This document shows, piece after piece, positions 4,716 through 62,101 of a stretch of 64,000 nucleotides of DNA; the first letter of the stretch is position 1, and each line of letters begins with the position of its first letter. The DNA lies in contig OX597822.1 in NCBI GenBank assembly GCA_951406725.2, positions 82,770,001-82,834,000 on the forward strand, in the 5' to 3' direction. The notes beneath the pieces were generated by a model, which worked only from the letters and a program-made list of their open reading frames with translations, made no database searches and was not told the origin of the DNA. A program made the translations under genes and the position numbers. Source of the stretch: Octopus vulgaris (lineage: Eukaryota).

Positions 4716-5297
4716 GGTCAATGCAGACCAATATTGACTAAAAAAGAAAATGTTGCTCTGTTTTAGTCTATCAAGCCTGAAGTTGAAATTGTTGATGGTT
4801 AGTGAAGCTAACTCTATTTTCAGTATTCACTTTTCTTGTGTGTATATTATTTATGGTGGTTGTTTTATTTGAGCTGGGGGAAGCAGAAACCCTTTTTGAT
4901 ACAACCCATCTGATACCATCTGGTTCTATGCTACAAAGCCTTTTGGTTTTAAAGTGTTTATATTTATATATCAAAAACCCCCACCTCATAATATCTTTGT
5001 GTAAAACACCTTTTGTTCATCATCCTTGTTTAATGTCCACTTTCCATGCTGGCATGGTTTTTGTAGATGGCTGTCCTTCCTAATGCCAACCACTTAAGAG
5101 TGTGCTGGGTTCTTTTTACATGCTACCAGCACAGGCCTCTGTTGTGTATAAATTGCTTTGTTTTAGGTGTGTATTTATTCTAAATAGACTTTAACTATTG
5201 TTAATATTAGATTATATTGTGCAAGTAATATAAGATATTAACTTATTTTGTTTTTGGAATCGGGAAATATTAAGTGGGGTGAAAGAAATGACTTTAA

Positions 5298-15680: not shown

Positions 15681-16364
15681 CAGTCTACTTGCTAGAAATC
15701 ACAACCAAATTTTCTTTAGCATGATATTGCCTGGAAAACAGAAATGCCATCTACAAAGGTTTTTAAACAAAAACACATAACTATAAATGTTTTCTTCAAA
15801 CTTCCATTTCCTATTTCAAAAAATAATTCTGACAGTGAATATTCAAAAGAAAACCATGCATGGTTTACCACCTGATGATCAAAACAACCAATTCGGAGTA
15901 CAGGATTTTGGAGCCTTTCAGTTATACTGCATTAAAGAATACTCTACATTTGTATTGAGTCCTGTAATTTATCACTTCTGATGAGTAAACAGAGATTTAT
16001 ATCTGTGGGTTTGAGTCCCATGCAGATAGGAAAGCCTTTTTTCTGTCGAGGGCTTACATGCCCCATTATTAGACTATTTTCCTTAGTCGTTGCACGGTGA
16101 TCGCCATAAGCTTTAAGCTTATATAAAAATATCATTATTATTATTATTTACAGGATTGTAAAATACGGCACCGTATAACAAAACCATTTGTACTGAAAAC
16201 ACATATATATAAACTAGGATGGTCATGGTTGGAATGCCTTTGATCGTAGGTTTTGTATATCAGGACAAACTTGTAAGCTAATAGCACACAGACATATTCA
16301 CATGAACAATTCTGAATTTTTTTTTTTTTTGATTTGATCTTTTACTTATTTACCTGTATTTAAA

Positions 16365-16740
16365 ATCATCATCATCATTTAACGTCTGCTTTCCATGCTA
16401 GCATGGGTTGGGCGATTTTTGACTGAGGGCTGGCGAACCGGATGGCTGCACCAGGCTCCAATCTTGATCTGGCAGAGTTTCTACAGCTGGATGCCCTTCC
16501 TAACGCCAACCACTCCAAGAGTGTAGTGGGTGCTTTTTACGTGCCACCAGCACGGGGCCAGTCAGGTGGTACTGGCAACGACCTCGCTCAAATCATTTTA
16601 CACATGCCACTGGCACAGGTGCCAGTAAGGCGACGCTGGTAACGATCACACTCAAATGGTACCTTTTATGTGCCACTGTCACAGAAGCCAGTTAGTCACT
16701 CTGGTAACGATCATGCTCAGATGGTGCTCTTGGCACCATA
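16365..16740 (-). mobile_element. SINE/LINE-tail family D with internal degenerate repeats
   Basis: (CAT)n-TTTAACGTC.GCTTTCCATGCT..CATGGGTTGG...CTACAGCTGGATGCCCTTCCTAACGCCAACC; copies at 22228-22620, 23985-24490, 32175-32320, 33868-34200, 59030-59230 and inverted at 5860-6060, 54710-54900. Confidence 0.8.
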
Positions 16741-21442: not shown

Positions 21443-21513
21443 GTAAGTTAGATTGCAACCATATTATTGTCCTTTAATTAACATCAGAGTTACTTAAAGT
21501 TCATAGTCCTGTA

Positions 21514-21804
21514 AACCACTATGCCATATGCCTGTGGGCATATGGCGTAGTGGTTAAGAGTGTGGGCTACTAACCCCTAGATTCTGAGTTCAATTCCAGG
21601 CAGTGACCTGAATAATAATAATAATAATAACATCAAAAAATACCTTAGGAATGAGAACCCAAGTTCAAAATTTCCCCAAAACACCTGATGAAGGCTGGAA
21701 GGTATATCAGCTGAAACATTGTGTTAACAACAAACAAGATGAGGACAAATATCTGTCAAATGTAAATAATGTGCATAATTACTCATCTCTTAAATACAGA
21801 ACTG
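21514..21804 (+). mobile_element. tRNA-derived SINE with 5' fold-back, (AAT)n linker and hammerhead-like 3' module
   Basis: A box TGGCGTAGTGG (21543-21553), B box GAGTTCAATTCC (~21586-21597), 19-bp inverted copy of the 5' end at 21514-21532. Confidence 0.75.
21680..21725 (+). ncRNA. minimal type-I hammerhead ribozyme-like motif inside a tRNA-SINE
   Basis: AACAC-CTGATGA-A-GGCTG(GAAGGTATAT)CAGCT-GAAA-CATT-GTGTT: stem I AACAC/GTGTT, stem II 5 bp, stem III vestigial. Confidence 0.6.
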
Positions 21805-22881
21805 TGAATCAGTCCCTGTTATTCTAATATATTATTCTGATGCAAGTGCAACTTTTCCAAAATGAGAAATACCTAGCAATTGTGAATGATGAACCTTCTT
21901 CAGCTGAAAGTGAATTAAAATAATCTTAAAGCAAATTAAAAGAATCTCAAAGAAATTAAAATGACCTTGGAACAAATTTTTTTTAAATTACCTCAAAATC
22001 ACAGTATTTATGTAGCTCCTCTACATCTAGGAAACTAATCTGCTCTGGCCCCATCTCACATACTTTTTACCCTTTGTCACCTTGTGTAAAGGAACTCTTT
22101 CAAAGTTCATAGTCCTGTAAATCTATATAATAGCCTCACTTGTGTTGGTGGTACAACAAAAAGCACTTACTATATACTGTACAGTGGTTGGTGTTAGGGA
22201 GAGCATCCATTCATATGTTGCTATGATACATCGTCGTCATCGTTTAACGTCTGCTTTCCATGCTGGCAGGGGTTGGGCAGTTTGAGGACTGGCAAGCCAG
22301 GAGGCTGCATCCCAGTCTGTTTTGGCAAGGTTTCTACAGCTAGATGCCCTACCTAACGCCAACCACTCGAGGGGTGCTTTTTACATAGCACGGGAGCCAG
22401 TCAGGCAGGACAGGCATCACCCATGCTCAATTGGTGCTTTTTACATGCCACCAGCACAGCTGCTAGTCAGGCAGCACTGGCATCAGTTATACTTGAATGA
22501 TGCTTTTTATATGCCACTGGCACAGGTGCCAGCCATGCTCAAATGGTTCTTTTTACATGCCACCAGCACAGGTGCCATCCAAAGGTACTGGCATTGGCCA
22601 CACTTGAATGGTGGCCGATACCAGTACCAAAGATATAAACAAGTTTAAAACCACAAATACAACCAACAACGTAGGTGCTTTATGTTGTTTCATTTATATT
22701 TATGTAATTATATTGTAATTATTTTCAAAATCTACCAAATTATTTGAATATTTTATTACAACAGTTAATAAACTAACATGGTGTGTTTCTTTTTTCTTCT
22801 AATTCCTCTTAAAATACATAAGTAATATCTATTTTTGAGTTAACTTTTCTTAGTAAGTTTCAACATTTATTATATTTTCAG

Positions 22882-23636: not shown

Positions 23637-24229
23637 ACATACAGCACCCAAATACACTTTTTAAAGTGAGAGTTTGGAAGGAACCAACTTGAGGAACCAT
23701 GCCAAAGCAGTGGCTAGAACTTGGTGCAATCGTCTGACTCACCAGCTGCAATCAACCTGTCTAACCCATGCCATCTGGGAAAATCAATTTTAAACAATGC
23801 CGATGATGGTTATCTTTCTGAGTCAGATTTTGGAGGTTTTTCAGGTTTTGTCCTTTTTCTGTCTAGTCTTACTTATTTGTTTTTCAACCAATTGAGAATA
23901 TTATAATACAGGGGCAACTGGAGAATTTCTGCATTTTACCTTATCTTTTGCATTTAACTCTGTTTTTAAGAATTAATCTAATACCAACTTCCCTTTTCAA
24001 TGCTGGTATGGGTTGGATGGTTTGATCAGAGCTGGCCAGCTGGAGACCTGCACCAGTCTGATTTGGTTTGATTTCTACAGCTGGATACTCTTCCTAATGC
24101 CAACCACTTTACAGAGTGTACCGGGTGCTTTTTACATGGCACCTGCATGGATGCCTCTTACATGCATTGGCACAGGTACCTTTTATGTGGGACCGACACA
24201 AATACTCTATATGCTCTTAATGTGGCTCT

Positions 24230-24425
24230 GGCACAAGTGCCCTCTTTGTGGGCACCAACACAAGCGCCATCTTTGTGTGGCACCGGCACATGCACCCTCT
24301 TTGTGTGGCACCGGCACATGCACCCTCTTTGTGTGGCACCATCACATGCACCCTCTTTGTGTGGCACCATCACATGCACCCTCTTTGTGTGGCACCAACA
24401 CAAGTGCTTTCCTTGTGTGACACCA
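24230..24425. repeat. 28-bp minisatellite (~6-7 copies) within a family D element
   Basis: unit GCACCCTCTTTGTGTGGCACC(GG/AT)CACAT. Confidence 0.9.
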
Positions 24426-24722
24426 GCAAAAGGAGGCTTTTAACATGATGCTGGCACTGGTGTCTTTTACATGGTGCCAGCACGGGGGCTTTTTATGTGA
24501 CAGGAACATTAACGATGCTGCTGTAGTCAACAGGTCTTCATGAGTAGGATGGGTGTTCTTGAAATTAATACTCACTTAAGAAGTATTAATCTAATACACC
24601 TGTAATATTCCTTCCTAGTCTTCTCTTTCATTTGTGTTGCAGTTGTCTTCTCTGTTTCTTTATCTATCAAGATATTAGTTTTAATCAGGGATTATTTTTT
24701 TTTTTTTTTTGATTTTTTTCAG

Positions 24723-31452: not shown

Positions 31453-34400
31453 TTAACTATTTAGTAAATTTTTGAAGAGAGATAATAAATTTGTATATGA
31501 ATTGTATAAACAGAAAAAAATAAGCTTTTTCTCTCACTGTCTGTGTGTGTATATAATTATGCATATATATAATATATATATATACTTACATCTATATTTA
31601 GAATTTAAAAGGAGAAATTCCATGCATACATATATATTTTGTGATGTACAGCCAAAGGAATTGAATGCAGGGTTTAAAAAAAAAAAAATGAATGACCCTG
31701 TTTTTAATTTTTTTTTTATTAATTCATTAATCTTAGAAAAATAAAATATTTGGAATTAGCCTTCAAATATATATATATTTATTTTTGTTTTTGTTTTCTT
31801 TTGAATGCATTCATAACATTGTGATGGTTATAAATTTCATTGAAGATGCTTGCTTGGGTGTATAATGTTGTTCATCTAATGACTGACTGAGTCAGCAATC
31901 AAACTCAGCTGTGTGGTTAAGAAGTTCGATTCCACTATGTAGCACTTTTGGCAAGGGTCTTTTATTATCTCCCCGAATTATCTAATTTTGTGTGGAAAAC
32001 TTTGATAGAAAGAAATAGGGAAGAAGCCCATCATGTATGATGTGCGAATGTACATATGTATATCATGTCATTTGACATCTTTTGTCCATGTTGGCATGAG
32101 TTGGACAATGTGACAAAAGCTGGAGAGCTGCACTAGGCTCCAATTGTCTGGTTTTATATATATATATATATATATCATCATCATCATCGTTTAACGTCCG
32201 TTTTCCATGCTAGCATGGGTTGGACGGTTCAACTGGGGTCTGGCAAGCCCGAAGGCTGCACCAGGCCAGTCAGATCTGGCAGTGTTTCTACAGCTGGATG
32301 CCCTTCCTAACGCCAACCACATATATATATGTATGTGTGTGTGTGTGTGTATATATGTATGTGTGTGTGTGTATGTATGTGTATATATATATATATATAT
32401 ATATGTGTGTGAAGGCACATGGCTCAGTGGTTAGAGTGTCGAGCCAACGATCATGAGGTTGTAAGCTTGAATCCTGGACTGGGGTGCATGTTGTGTTCTT
32501 GAGCAAGACGCTTTATTTCACGTTGCTCCAGTTCACTCAGCTGTAGAAATGAGTTGTGACATCACAGGTGCTAAGCTGTATCAGCCCTTGCCTTTCCCTT
32601 GGATAACACTGGTGGCGTTGAGAGAGGAAGCCGGTATGCATGGGCAACTGCTGGTCTTCCATAAACAACCTTGCCTGGACTTGTGCCTAGGAGGGTAATT
32701 TTCTAGGTGCAATCCCATGGTCAGTGTTGTGGCCGAAGGGGGTCTCAGAATATATATATGAGTGTGTATATGCATGGCTATGTGATTAAGAAAGCTTGCT
32801 TCCTAACCATGTGGTCTTGGGTTCAGTTCTACTATGCAGTACTGAGTGAGTGTCTTCTACTGTAGCCAGTACAATCAAATCCTTGAGTGGATTTGGTAAA
32901 CAGAAACTCACCTGAAACAGGTAAGAGTTGGTGACAGGGCATTGAGCAAGCCGTAGAAACTCTGCCTCAACAAGTTTTGTTTGGCCCATGCAAGCACAGA
33001 AACCACTTCTCAGCCACTGTTGTTACGAGATCTACTCTGATCTGAAGTAGTAGTGCCTTCCAGGAGCCCAGCTATGGGTTAATGAGCTTGTCATGGAATT
33101 ATCTATTGGATGGTCACTCACAAACACCCCACACAGATCCAGGGCAGAAGAGGTCTTTTTATTTTTTGTTGCTCATCTAAGAGAAAATAACTCCATACAA
33201 ATCCTGCAGCCTAATAACAACTGGACATGTGGCACTTATTGCACCCAACTAATCCATGTTTGAAGAACAAGAGAGTGGGACTGGATAATCCTCCTACGAG
33301 GATTATATGGTTTGCCTGCCTGTCACCTGCTAATCTTTGAATGTTAAAACTAATGTATGTAGAAAATTCCATGCCTTGATACATAAGTATGTCCCGGATA
33401 GCCTTAGGTATAAAATTTTTAATAGATGTTCAGTGAAAGTTTCTTGCAACTGCTGCTCCAACATGAAAGATATTATTATATGTAAGTCACAGTAGGTGCC
33501 TTAATACTGTAAGGTTAGTTCAGTGTTTGAAGAAGCTGAAATTTACCTCAGTTCTACAAAATAATGAAACTCAAACGTTTATTAGGCTATGTGAAAGTAA
33601 CATTAACAAATGACATACCAACGACCAGTCTTCTTTCAAGAAAATCATCAAGTTAACTAGCAATCTAAGAACTCCACTGATTTACTGAATTCTAGATCTG
33701 AAATTTTCACTAAATGTAAGCATTTGGATAAGTTTCTATTATCAAACTGGAAAACACCACAAACTTTAACCTTTTCTCTTTAAATTAATTACACCAAGAA
33801 TTATTAATTCCCATTCTAACAGTTCAAAGGGACACAACTTATAGTAGCTTGCATTTAAATCCTGTGTATCGTCATTATCATTTAATGACCATTGTCCATG
33901 CTGGCATGGGTTGGACGGTTTGACCTGGGCTGGAAGGCTGCATCAGACTCCAGTCTGTTTTGGCATGGTTTCTACAGCTGGATGCCCTTCCTAATGCCAA
34001 ATACTCCGAGAGTGTAATGGGCCCATTTGTGTGATACCAGTATCTGCCATGACTGCAGTTTTACTTGGCTTGATGTGTCTTCTTCTCAAGCACAGCAGAA
34101 TGCCAAATGGACTTGGTCATTGCCTCCGTGAGGTCCAATGCTCAAAGCCCAACATAATGCCAAATGGTCTTGATCCTAGCCCTTGTGAGGCCTGTATTAA
34201 ATGATATTTATTTCTCACTAGATGGAGTACTCTTCTTTTGTAGATCCCATGTATAACAGAACAGTACTTTATGTTGTAATAGGGACATACAATCCAGGGA
34301 GCCAAGTCTAGGAAGGTACTAAACTTCAAGCATTTATGCAGCTAGTACAGATGACCAAAGATGGAGAATATATGATAAAAACGAGTTTATTAACATCATT

Positions 34401-58270: not shown

Positions 58271-59578
58271 TTTGTTGTAGAGTCTATACATTGGTGACAT
58301 GATTGCAGTGACTCAATGTCGTTTAATGTGCAAAAATAGTGGTGCAACTTGAATAGTGATGGTTTGTGTAACTGTGGTTTTATGGTGTGTCTTGAGCTTT
58401 GACTGTGTCCACATGGAAAACCGAGGTAAAAATTGGGCTTGGTTATATTGTCAAATAGCTTTATAGGACTGTGTATTTTGTACTAGTTCTAACCAGAAAC
58501 TTTTTTTTTCTCAGGGTAGATGTGAGAGATATCTTCAGTTATATATTTTAATGATATCGATGAAAATATATTTAAAAGTCCCTGAACATTTGTGAGGAAA
58601 TGGTGCTCACTTTTTAGTTTTTAAAGTACTAAGTAGATGGAATAGAGCTTTTTCTGGTTAGGTCATCAATCTATTTAGTTTGAAATTTGAAAAATATATG
58701 GTATTTATTGCTTGCAGTTAATTCCACAATACATAGGTTTTTTTCACTGCTCATAACATATATACGCAATAGATAGACATTAACAGTGCATGATCTTGTA
58801 GTCCAACACCTTATCATCAGATAGGACATTTTACCTTTACTTTGAAGTTTAGTCTGCATCAGGTAAGAAGTATATGAAATAAAGAAAAAATATTTTAGGG
58901 AAACTTAAGTACATGTGGTACATTGTCCAGAAGCAGTATTATTAATAATAATAAATATTTTTAACATAAGTTCAAAAAGAAATTTTTTGGTGTTGATTTT
59001 GATTATATTGACTCTGGAGGAGCTGGAATTATCATCTTCATCATTTAATGTCCATATTCCATGCTGGCATGGGTTGGACAGTCTCACAGGATCCAATGGG
59101 TGCAAGGACTACATTGTGTTCCGCTGTTTACTTTAGCATTTCCCCCACAACTGATTGCGCTTCCTAACACCAACCACTTTGCAACTTTGACTGGGTGTTG
59201 TTTTTTCATGCCACCAGTACTTGTGTGGTTGCCATGCAGCTTACAAGACTATGAACACCAAGGGGCTAACTTTATGCAAGGAAAGGGGTCAAGTATGAGA
59301 GAAAAGGGCCAAAGCAGAAGAGGAGTTACATGGTTATGATTTAGAAGAGAGGAGAATGAAAGTGATTGGATGGCACTGGAAAATGGTGAAAATGGTAATG
59401 TTGAGGTGTGAGGGTCGACCTTAACGAGTCATCGTATGAGGTGGGCAGGAGTAAATGTTGATAAGCATTCTGATGCTAATAATTCTGCCAGTGTATTTTG
59501 TCACCACATTTATAGATCCTGACAGGTTTCCTCCAGTTTTCACATAAAAGCAACACTCAAACCTCTCCTTTCAACTCT

Positions 59579-60076
59579 TTACCCTTTCCCACATCCCTTT
59601 TCTTACTCTTTCCCACATCCCCTTTCTTACCCTTTCCCACATCCCCTTTCTTACCCTTTCCCACATCCCTTTTCTTACCCTTTCCCACATCCCCTTTCTT
59701 ACCCTTTCCCACATCCCTTTTCTTACTCTTCCCCACATCCCTTTTCTTAATCTTCCCCACATCCCTTTTCTTACTTTTTCCCACATCCCCTTTCTTACCC
59801 TTTCCCACATCCCCTTTCTTACCCTTTCCCACATCCCTTTTCTTACCCTTTCCCACATCCCTTTTCTTACCCTTTCCCACATCCCTTTTCTTACCCTTTC
59901 CCACATCCCTTTTCTTACCCTTTCCCACATCCCTTTTCTTGCCCTTTCCCACATCCCTTTTCTTACCCTTTCCCCACATCCCTTTTCTTACCCTTTCCCA
60001 CATCCCTTTTCTTACTCTTTCCCACATCCCTTTTCTTACCCTTTCCCCACATCCCTTTTCTTACCCTTTCCTCATC
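59579..60076. repeat. 24-bp pyrimidine-rich minisatellite (~20 copies)
   Basis: unit TTACCCTTTCCCACATCCCTTTTC with minor variants. Confidence 0.97.
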
Positions 60077-60536
60077 TTTTGCTTGGTTTTCTCTGTTTGT
60101 GTGTGCCAAATGCTTCCTTGCTTTCATTTCTTTGTAGGCAAATAGTCCAGACAATTTTGTGCTGCTTTTTCCATGATTGACATTTCATTTGCTACACATT
60201 GATTGTTTTGCTCATGATTTCCTGTTTAAATTGTTCTTTTTTTTATTTAGTATATTGCATGGTAGATGCCAAGTTTAAAATGGAAGATGCACAAGATATA
60301 TTCTGATAGACTGTTTCACAAAAACTGATTATAAAAACGAGCGCATAACATATTTCAATTTTAATTCTATCTTTCCACCATGTGAGAATAGACCTGATAA
60401 TTTCTTAAGCACTTAGCTGTGAGGTATGTTGTGTGCAGATATTTTGTTAGATGAATCGAGACACAAAGTAAACAGAGTTATGTACCTTTCCTAGGGTATG
60501 ATTAGTACTTGACCTGCATTAAAGTTTGAGCTTGTG

Positions 60537-60596: not shown

Positions 60597-60917
60597 AAGG
60601 CACATGGCTTAGTGGTTAGGGGATTCGGCTCATGATTGTAAGGTCGTGAGTTCAATTCCTGGTGGTGCATTGAGTCCTTGAGCAAGACACTTTATTTCAT
60701 GTTGCTCCAGTCCACTCAGCTGGCAAAAATGAGTAGTACCTGTATTTGAAAGGGCCAGCCTTGTCACACTCTGTGTCACACTGAATTTCCCCGAGAACTA
60801 CATCAAAGGTGCATGTGTCTGTGCAGTGCTCAACCACTTGCACATTAATTTCACGAGCAAGCTGGTCTGTTGATCGTATCAGCTGGGACCCTCGTTGTCG
60901 TAACTGACAGAGTGCTC
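60597..60917 (+). mobile_element. tRNA-SINE family C variant
   Basis: TGGCTTAGTGG A box, GAGTTCAATTCC B box, TTGAGCAAGACACTTTATTTC core (also at 32412-32747), family tail. Confidence 0.8.
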
Positions 60918-61640: not shown

Positions 61641-62101
61641 GATTAGAAAAATTACTATTTTTAAATCTCACAATGAAAGATATTCAGTAACAGTACTTTG
61701 TAGTAAAGATTGTTTGCCAACATAACAATGGTAGTTCTAGTTTATGACTAATGTTGCTGTAATTTAGCCTCAGGAGACATCGTCTCCAGCTGGCTATATG
61801 ACACAATCTGTTAAAAAATAGTAATTTTCTAATCTATAAATCAGTGACTAGTTGTCACTTTGAAAACTATATATTTCAAACGGGAATTTGGCAGCACCAC
61901 CTCTAACCGAACTATTGTTCTGTGCTGATGAAGGGAAATAACCCGGAAATCGCGATACACAGATATTGTTTTGAGCTGAGTGGGGGTGCTAGATTCCCTT
62001 GTTCAAGCCAGCTGGAGATGATGTCTCCTGGGGCTAAATTACAGCAACATTAGTCCTAAACCAGGACTGCCATGTTATGTTGGCAAACAACCTTTACTAC
62101 A
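61641..62101. mobile_element. Penelope-like pLTR remnant with ~96-bp inverted repeats
   Basis: 61699-61795 is the reverse complement of 62006-62101 (a few mismatches); 61641-61664 inverts 61811-61834; hammerhead motif between the long arms. Confidence 0.6.
61919..61963 (+). ncRNA. minimal type-I hammerhead ribozyme-like motif (Penelope-type)
   Basis: TCTGTG-CTGATGA-A-GGG(AAATAA)CCC-G-GAAA-TCGCGA-TA-CACAGA: 6-bp stem I, palindromic stem III ATCGCGAT, AUA triplet. Confidence 0.7.

Follow-up and report, generated by a model that had tools for sequence, protein, structure and literature searches.

The tRNA-headed element with an embedded hammerhead ribozyme that we analysed in a 64,000-nucleotide stretch of Octopus vulgaris DNA (the window, whose positions are used below) is almost certainly the pseudo-LTR and tail of an autonomous Penelope-like element (PLE). 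A sequence-only reading of the same DNA had taken it for a tRNA-derived SINE mobilised by a PLE reverse transcriptase (RT). The PLE RT as the mobiliser held up, but a separate SINE with a borrowed 3′ module did not, since the head, hammerhead and tail together constitute the PLE pseudo-LTR and free copies carry no diagnostic difference. The parts of the octopus element are each known from other systems, and for their combination, a tRNA head carried by an autonomous PLE, we found no precedent. Read jointly, the genomic evidence gives about an even chance to an autonomous protein-coding element with a full-length Pol III transcript, which would have captured a tRNA promoter, lost all terminators from its open reading frame (ORF), mass-produced a SINE and had its RNA cut by the hammerhead in vivo.

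The features of the copy in the window are collected in Table 1. All parts named by the earlier reading were found at the positions it had given, except that the 3′ end lies at 21805 and not at 21804, so that the core element measures ~270 bases. The first 19 nt of the head recur upstream in inverted orientation across a 4-nt loop, with one G/A mismatch of the CpG type; an (AAT)n linker follows the head; and the hammerhead consists of stem I (AACAC/GTGTT), CTGATGA, an extra A, stem II (GGCTG/CAGCT) and GAAAC-ATT. In other copies the inverted arms range from ~20 to ~270 nt, the 19-nt hairpin of the window being one short case; the suggestion that the inverted terminal duplication is a PLE hallmark was right. 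The exact 20-bp direct repeat listed in Table 1 could be a target-site duplication, a long one, around a co-inserted fragment; the 296-nt spacer before its right copy gave genome matches of only 43-102 nt at 73-92% identity, with no long close match among them.

Table 1. Features of the element and its surroundings in the window. Element position 1 corresponds to window position 21537.
Feature	Positions	Strand	Basis
Exact 20-bp direct repeat, left copy, abutting the inverted arm	21496-21515	+	sequence
Short inverted arm repeating the head's first 19 nt, placed head-to-head with the main copy	21514-21532	-	sequence
Terminal quasi-palindrome at the putative RNA 5′ end (position -7 = 21530), arm junction	21530-21539	.	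fold-back junction counts
tRNA-derived head, predicted type 2 Pol III promoter, pseudo-LTR start	21536-21610	+	A box (21543-21553) and B box (21586-21597)
Core element	21537-21805	+	
(AAT)n microsatellite linker, variable in length, often the target of later insertions	21611-21630	+	copies compared
PLE reading frame, first 155 nt; presumed start at the in-frame ATG 21651	21651-21805	+	frame
Minimal type I hammerhead, predicted cut 21720/21721	21680-21725	+	core and stems
PLE tail, bounded by the short (~21772/21779) and the long (~21805) 3′ ends, which are putative alternative RT start sites	21772-21805	+	end map
Exact 20-bp direct repeat, right copy, 296 nt beyond the element end	22102-22121		sequence

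The assignment to a PLE was made from the sequences that adjoin the copies of this family. Six of the first 58 distinct copies share upstream sequence encoding the end of a GIY-YIG endonuclease, and 28 of 30 GIY-YIG-coding loci run on into the element, with the tRNA head lying ~30 nt past the RT/GIY-YIG stop codon in the long copies; an autonomous PLE (RT plus GIY-YIG) sharing the 3′ module, which the earlier reading had proposed to look for, is therefore present. On the other side, 27 of 30 loci with an ORF start have the last bases of the element just upstream. The resulting unit of ~2.65 kb runs from head through (AAT)n, hammerhead, tail, ORF, stop codon and 30 nt to the next head, and since 303 exact ORF-head junctions occur genome-wide, these junctions are unlikely to be assembly artefacts. 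Upstream of the GIY-YIG part, the RT gave a Pfam RVT_1 match (E = 5.5e-10). Over the C-terminal part, identity is 39% (E = 8e-61) to P0095, a protein whose matching region gives an above-cut-off Pfam GIY-YIG match; the family protein piece P0001 itself gave no Pfam match.

The in-frame ATG, at element position 115, opens a frame of ~835 codons that passes through the ribozyme. It measures 832 codons in the column majority, a yardstick that lacked 9 T-free bases in stem I and by which end-map positions past ~139 are offset by -9. In long copies this frame stays open across the hammerhead and runs on into the RT/GIY-YIG ORF; an unbroken ORF was not found in any single natural copy, the longest stop-free stretch being 569 aa. 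Partial tandem copies serve as pseudo-LTRs, with the element on both sides of the ORF (for example at loci L198, L202, L205 and L206). The family thus shows the canonical features of EN+ PLEs, namely a single ORF encoding RT and, C-terminally, a GIY-YIG domain, pseudo-LTRs and an inverted 5′ copy, as well as a tail of 26-33 nt between two classes of 3′ end, corresponding to the optional 30-40-nt tail of EN+ PLEs. On inspection, the linker of P0001 contains no paired CxxC, which a 781-aa Neptune-type control does contain. A Zn-finger in the linker is described as a feature of Neptune and Nematis elements (PMC8557442), and the family is accordingly labelled Poseidon-type by inspection. A 40% identity to an uncharacterised Anolis sagrei protein provides a lead, and only a lead, for the Poseidon clade.

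In the same genome, a Pfam GIY-YIG search retrieved mostly a Neptune-type family, and none of the 15 loci inspected belonged to the family studied here. This Neptune-type PLE has intact 781-codon frames at many loci (e.g., L215:2245-4587, on G000:C16), and, its frames being intact, it is probably much younger than the studied family. A protein search for headless sister families gave, besides self, 150 matches at 61-88% identity, many of them with stops.

A LINE tail at the 3′ end was considered and rejected, as this end is the start of the PLE ORF. The element has sharp ends and unrelated flanks, and neither a poly-A or simple-repeat tail nor a 3′ end of the LINE type, as a tRNA-derived SINE would have; the tRNA-related head with A and B boxes and the short length are those of such a SINE. 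A distinct non-autonomous lineage was not found: the copies form one sequence pool, and the head lies inside the autonomous element. When 53 free and 94 ORF-joined heads were compared over 74-162 columns per comparison, no diagnostic column emerged (smallest P = 0.011), and the only majority difference between the two groups was a CpG. Head divergence was 0.073 in free copies versus 0.096 in ORF-joined ones, in samples picked by different queries.

The genome searched comprises 2.8 Gb in 227 contigs and yielded 6,221 first-look candidates for the family. Exact matches numbered 3,293 for the head and 8,905 for a 24-nt pattern from the 3′ half of the hammerhead, and backward-pattern controls gave 0 in both cases. 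Long copies are 87-95% identical to the column majority, indicating that the family, with a decay of ~9%, is old and decayed. The element was also present in five organisms of related species. Among 10 anticodon types sampled from the genome, a sample that left out Gln and Asn, the head best matched tRNA-Arg(TCT), with 47 identities over 74 nt (z = 7.2). The A and B box columns are conserved save for CpG decay, and both boxes are intact in the family majority, at the places in the window where the earlier reading had located a Pol III promoter. ARAGORN at its default settings called 0 genes in the window, the head included, and at relaxed settings made 29 calls in 71 heads, with mixed isotypes; Rfam scans called neither the tRNA nor the hammerhead and returned chance matches only. 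Octopus tRNA-derived SINEs of tRNA-Arg origin (OK, OR1 and OR2) were reportedly described by Ohshima and Okada in 1994. Their head is possibly the same as the one studied here, for which tRNA-Arg is the best match, and in Repbase/Dfam or by these authors the short form may have been filed earlier as a SINE. Another tRNA-derived SINE is present in the window at 60599-60662 and near 32411; it is 70% like the head over 64 nt, and its best match within the tRNA sample is tRNA-Cys.

Within the window, the bare hammerhead core pattern did not exceed chance (3 matches versus 1.99 expected), so that the copies of the family had to decide, and by their anatomy the hammerhead is real. Stem I and stem II pairs are standard in 91-98% of 180-205 pieces, and the whole core is kept in 100 of 200 spanning pieces, with core and palindrome kept in 51. 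The ribozyme has the core CUGANGA/GAAA/UH and stems I and II of a minimal type I hammerhead, and the extra base at 9-10.1, the G10.1-C11.1 pair and the palindromic 15.2-16.2 confirm its assignment to the minimal PLE type. The window copy is undeleted at the predicted cut and carries two CpG decays: among 224 pieces, position 21718 reads G 123 times and A 50 times, as expected from the guess of CpG decay, and among 221 pieces position 21712 reads C 148 times and T 62 times. From these column counts the original forms were GAAACGTT and a stem II of GGCTG/CAGCC, which supports the ancestral palindrome AACGTT that had been suggested. Covariation of stems I and II was not found inside the family, which is what would be expected of copies whose decay is not opposed by selection, and within-family conservation of the hammerhead columns is barely above that of the flanks (0.966 versus 0.94-0.96). 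Among relatives, covariation was evident, since 12 of 80 metagenome PLE loci have the same core with unrelated stems and mostly the same GAAACGTT.

The window contains further repeats. A second hammerhead family is represented at 61815-62101 (+), with its hammerhead at 61918-61962 and an inverted arm at 61699-61795. It numbers 2,594 first-look candidates and has a ~345-nt circularly permuted unit with a palindromic stem III, head-to-head arms, conserved T4 runs, no tRNA head and no ORF of its own in 30 loci; from this anatomy it appears to be retrozyme-like. Minisatellites occupy 59507-60131 (24-nt period) and 24223-24474 (28-nt period), and a frequent dispersed repeat follows (CAT)n tracts at 4991-5160, 16340-16710, 22205-22600, 24059-24172, 32152-32344, 33843-34030 and 59006-59203.

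Copies of the studied family begin and end at preferred places. At the 3′ side, 74 of 378 ends fall at a short site (~236/243) and 92 at a long site (~269), positions at which reads of four public runs also break; relative to the ORF, the sites lie at +122-129 and ~+155. At the 5′ side, ends cluster at -7 to +4. Among 30 intact heads sampled by their position along the chromosomes, 25 begin at the head (≤7 nt before it) and 5 are ORF-joined, 3 of the latter being near-identical duplicates, and 29 of 30 free heads (neither fold-back nor ORF-joined; a sample pooled from several queries) keep ≤7 nt of native upstream sequence. Exact matches to the ORF-joined and the head pattern (303 versus 3,293) were obtained with differing patterns and correspond to roughly 14% after a rough correction for pattern length and one CpG; the ORF-joined share of heads is ~10-17%. 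Loci L182, L183 and L184 (7.93, 8.95 and 9.05 Mb of G000:C1) are near-identical ORF-joined copies and probably segmental duplicates.

The 5′ boundary is a G, 13 nt upstream of the A box, which is a usual distance for a type 2 Pol III start. The ten bases from this G form a near-palindrome that makes up the junction of head-to-head arms, with 582 strand-hits. The arms commonly end at the short RT site and the main copy at the long one, which suggests two cDNAs primed from two nicked strands. Units are mostly arranged singly or head-to-head, and tandem ORF-head-ORF junctions are present at L147 and L155. At L141, L149, L153, L156 and L162 (also L143, L150 and L157), ORF sequence continues to ~220-250 or ~450 nt past the tail and is then followed by the element; these jumps may point to additional RT starts, or to RNA ends, within the ORF. 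The proposal that self-cleavage processes the RNA end had to be abandoned: 5′ ends lie at the head and 3′ ends at ~236/243/269, and the cut at 184/185 is internal and in frame. Self-cleavage as the maker of insert ends was thus rejected, the cut being at neither end.

At the cut itself, copies show a deletion scar. Strict alignment placed 44 piece starts at 183-189 versus 8.4 expected; an earlier, gap-tolerant 5′ end map had given a weak excess there (13 versus ~5), because deletions were absorbed into the alignments. A deletion resuming at 184-187 was present in 34 of 173 spanning pieces, and 29 of them share one 3-nt form located just before the cut, 11 of these 29 reading differently via decay of the new CpG. 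Genome-wide, the 3-nt deletion was matched 1,420 times versus 8,905 undeleted matches (13.8%). As a control, one-unit loss of a perfect TGA-TGA repeat ~30 nt upstream, which is a better slippage substrate than the cut site, occurred 12 times versus 7,194 (0.17%); plain DNA slippage was rejected as the origin of the deletion, the control event being ~80-fold rarer. The AAC microsatellite just downstream of the cut slips in 10-15 of 173 pieces. No variants linked to the 3-nt deletion were found among 28 versus 117 pieces (smallest P = 0.010), and in two-arm inserts carrying it the deletion was discordant between the arms in 3 of 5 and present in both arms in 2 of 5, a discordance for which an end-to-end copied hairpin was rejected as the sole source of long arms. 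By hand count, ~21 other junctions with different left partners fall at 183-189 versus ~4 expected. Being in frame, the deletion could also represent a viable master allele, and its matches looked clustered at 107-115 Mb of C1. In the second hammerhead family, 16 aligned copies, top-scoring and therefore biased against gaps, had no deletion at the cut. The deletion is likely a trace of self-cleavage and fits an RT that jumps across the cut RNA, and judged by this genomic evidence, hammerhead cleavage in vivo is quite probable.

Besides plain runs of T, interrupted T-tracts (T3VT2/T2VT3) also act as Pol III stops. The usual stop consists of at least four T residues (T4; PMC3141230), and the prediction derived from a Pol III start, that the sense strand has no terminators, was made before T4 sites were counted. 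No T4 site is common to >15% of copies, compared with 28 such A4 sites (309 pieces, coverage 20-188). Across the 2.65-kb unit, sense-strand TTTT and interrupted T-tracts together number 0 versus ~6 expected (6.05; 0 of 1000 shuffles), and windows with 5 of 6 T are also zero. T4 in the ORF was 0 versus 2.95 by synonymous shuffle (P = 0.032), 4.38 by base shuffle (P = 0.010) and 5.42 by synonymous redraw (P = 0.004). Under Markov nulls that keep the low TT/TTT, the T4 absence was not significant (P = 0.07 and 0.23), nor was the absence of T5 alone (P = 0.37), and G4 runs are absent as well (0 versus 3.4 expected).

Thirteen natural long copies have 0-3 T4 each versus 3.7-5.7 expected, at unshared places, with none in 3 of the 13. 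The Neptune-type PLE of the same genome, taken as a control, has 8-9 T4 at the same T content. Among the 80 metagenome PLE loci, all 51 with a coding match of ≥1.5 kb have T4 (502 versus 326 expected), and 19 T-matched relatives have 76 versus 60 expected (scaled P = 0.0025), five of the 19 with only 1-2 terminator-like sites. These counts suggest a moderate signal of terminator avoidance, in the predicted direction. Downstream of the ORF, a strict A/B-box pattern matched no head in the 80 metagenome loci, many of which have no 3′ flank. One of them, L243, has a tRNA-like A/B-box stretch at ~2510-2584, ~420 nt upstream of its RT match.

We propose that the PLE is transcribed by Pol III and makes its own 'SINE' via internal priming, a model that we favour with some reserve. 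Within it, a Pol III start at the head appears likely, and a Pol III template covering the whole unit is favoured by a narrow margin. Pol III would start ~13 nt before the A box, meet no terminator and read the 2.5-kb ORF and tandem units. The PLE protein would nick AT-rich DNA and start internal priming from two places in the ORF, 122-129 and ~155 nt from its start, as has been shown in vitro for the anole Poseidon element. Where priming falls in the first repeat, run-off at the 5′ end of the RNA would yield head-to-tail 270-nt copies; where it falls in a repeat further downstream, 5′-truncated, ORF-bearing copies would result. Two cDNAs, one per nicked strand, would join head-to-head via the terminal palindrome to produce inverted arms, and snap-back with a switch to target DNA would account for short arms such as the 19-nt one. 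The hammerhead would cut a share of the templates, probably in dimeric form or aided by protein; the cDNA copied from the 3′ fragment would end in AC, pair with the GU that lies two bases in from the end of the 5′ fragment and resume there, with the loss of exactly the 3 nt before the cut. Cleavage would not be needed for insertion and would inactivate the mRNA. The 270-nt copies would lack the downstream binding region (PAc, the Poseidon element of Anolis carolinensis, needs the ORF to +172) and be dead ends. In three raw RNA-seq runs, which cannot split element transcripts from host read-through, depth was equal on both strands and followed the copy-number gradient, with no pile-up of ends at the head or the cut.

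Part of this evidence could also be read for an ordinary PLE transcribed by Pol II, in whose 3′ UTR a tRNA-SINE with an (AAT)n tail had inserted; the head would then be a passenger, the ends would come from RT stalling or snap-back at the palindrome, and the lack of T4 would be a by-product of an A-rich, TT-poor strand. A head followed by (AAT)n does look like a simple SINE insertion, the window holds another tRNA-SINE that is 70% alike over 64 nt, the absence of T4 is unremarkable under Markov nulls with G4 being absent too, and PLE pseudo-LTRs have been reported with a transcription start and an internal promoter (PMC8557442). A terminal hairpin could, moreover, stop the RT whatever the promoter. 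We nevertheless consider this origin unlikely. Its hairpin of 4 bp is a weak RT block, and copies without fold-back stop at the same boundary, at -7 and 13 nt upstream of the A box; windows with 5 of 6 T are absent, as are T4 and interrupted tracts, the T-matched relatives lie above their shuffles, and both boxes have stayed intact in the family majority.

A divided system, with Pol III making only the template of the short copies from the head and Pol II read-through of tandem arrays supplying the mRNA and the ORF-bearing template, is more doubtful still. Such a division would explain the 5′ pile-up and avoid the translation of an uncapped RNA, and the tandem ORF-head-ORF junctions at L147 and L155 and the ~10-17% of heads that are ORF-joined fit with it; T4 avoidance would, however, be needed only in the first few hundred bases, and the whole 2.5-kb ORF is clean. 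Least probable, and very improbable in our view, is the model of the sequence-only reading, an independent non-autonomous SINE lineage with its own masters, mobilised in trans by the PLE like schistosome Sm-alpha. The absence of diagnostic variants, the frame that stays intact through the short element and the 3′ ends that coincide with internal RT start sites all speak against it, as does the report that anole Poseidon RNA needs the ORF to +172 (PMC11167929), so that copies ending at +155 would be dead ends; these points are to be set against the several-fold excess of short over ORF-joined copies and the slightly lower head divergence of free copies (0.073 versus 0.096), which would suit an independent lineage. 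We therefore retain the reading of a Pol III-transcribed PLE that makes its own short copies.

The closest described system is PAc (PMC11167929), which, in common with the octopus element as we read it, is reported to have a single RT+GIY-YIG ORF, a hammerhead at the pseudo-LTR/ORF junction with the start codon upstream of its cut, a tail delimited by two internal RT starts, and a dispensable cleavage. The first RT start of PAc lies at +111-118, compared with +122-129 and ~+155 in the octopus element, and its ATG is at stem II, whereas that of the octopus element lies 29 nt before stem I. In the available part of the PAc account, no tRNA head or Pol III promoter is described and no RNA-seq reads end at the cut; the octopus element, in contrast, has the head and, at the cut, the deletion scar. 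The extra base, G10.1-C11.1, the palindromic 15.2-16.2, the short stem I and the location in the pseudo-LTR are those reported for minimal PLE hammerheads by Cervera and de la Pena (2014; PMC4209133), who, in the sections available, state that there is no in vivo evidence and mention tRNA 0 times; reviews, as far as their accessible text goes, call the in vivo activity of these ribozymes a mystery (PMC7761336). Ribozyme-linked translation has been reported for other retrotransposons and viruses (PMC13725137); the difference is that the cut here lies after the ATG.

Schistosome Sm-alpha and Sj-alpha (PMC2770079, PMC8490949) likewise combine a tRNA-derived head, tRNA-Gln-like for Sm-alpha in S. 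mansoni, with a type I hammerhead at high copy number. They are, however, described as SINE-like, with canonical hammerheads (PMC4209133) and no ORF, and the available parts of these accounts do not mention an autonomous element with the Sm-alpha head (PMC2770079, PMC8490949). Non-LTR retrozymes are reported as non-coding hammerhead units that derive from PLE pseudo-LTRs and are mobilised by PLEs (PMC7761336, bioRxiv 10.64898/2026.07.22.740005), and their tandem arrays are said to lack promoters; the octopus unit, by contrast, has a promoter-like head with A and B boxes and an ORF start and belongs to a coding element, and is thus not a retrozyme of this kind. Cassandra, Helenus and Ajax carry 5S- or tRNA-like sequence in a retrotransposon terminal repeat (PMC10886601), but these are described as non-autonomous LTR elements, whereas the carrier in octopus is an autonomous protein-coding PLE. 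Non-autonomous pseudo-LTR derivatives are known for Chlamys (PMC8557442), and the giant squid genome paper, in its available part, lists hammerheads, SINEs and Penelope elements without linking them (PMC6962438). In a search of the open literature aimed at the tRNA head and the terminator-free ORF, we found neither an autonomous PLE bearing a tRNA head nor a retrotransposon ORF free of terminators described, and no account of the cut-site scar either. Judged from the genomic copies, three traits would go beyond known PLEs, namely the head-placed 5′ ends, the lack of sense-strand T-tracts and the 3-nt cut-site deletion.

Pol II is regarded as the polymerase of protein-coding retrotransposons, R2 relying on Pol I co-transcripts, and Pol III as typical of the non-coding elements that parasitise them. 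If our reading is true, this PLE with a tRNA promoter and no terminator in its ORF, recognised from its sequence, would blur the line between Pol II and Pol III elements, and it would provide a direct route of SINE birth, as a by-product of the SINE's own autonomous element. SINEs of the Sm-alpha type with hammerheads may then be orphaned products of such elements. The scar at the scissile bond, found in ~14% of copies, provides a purely genomic assay that is usable on any PLE family.
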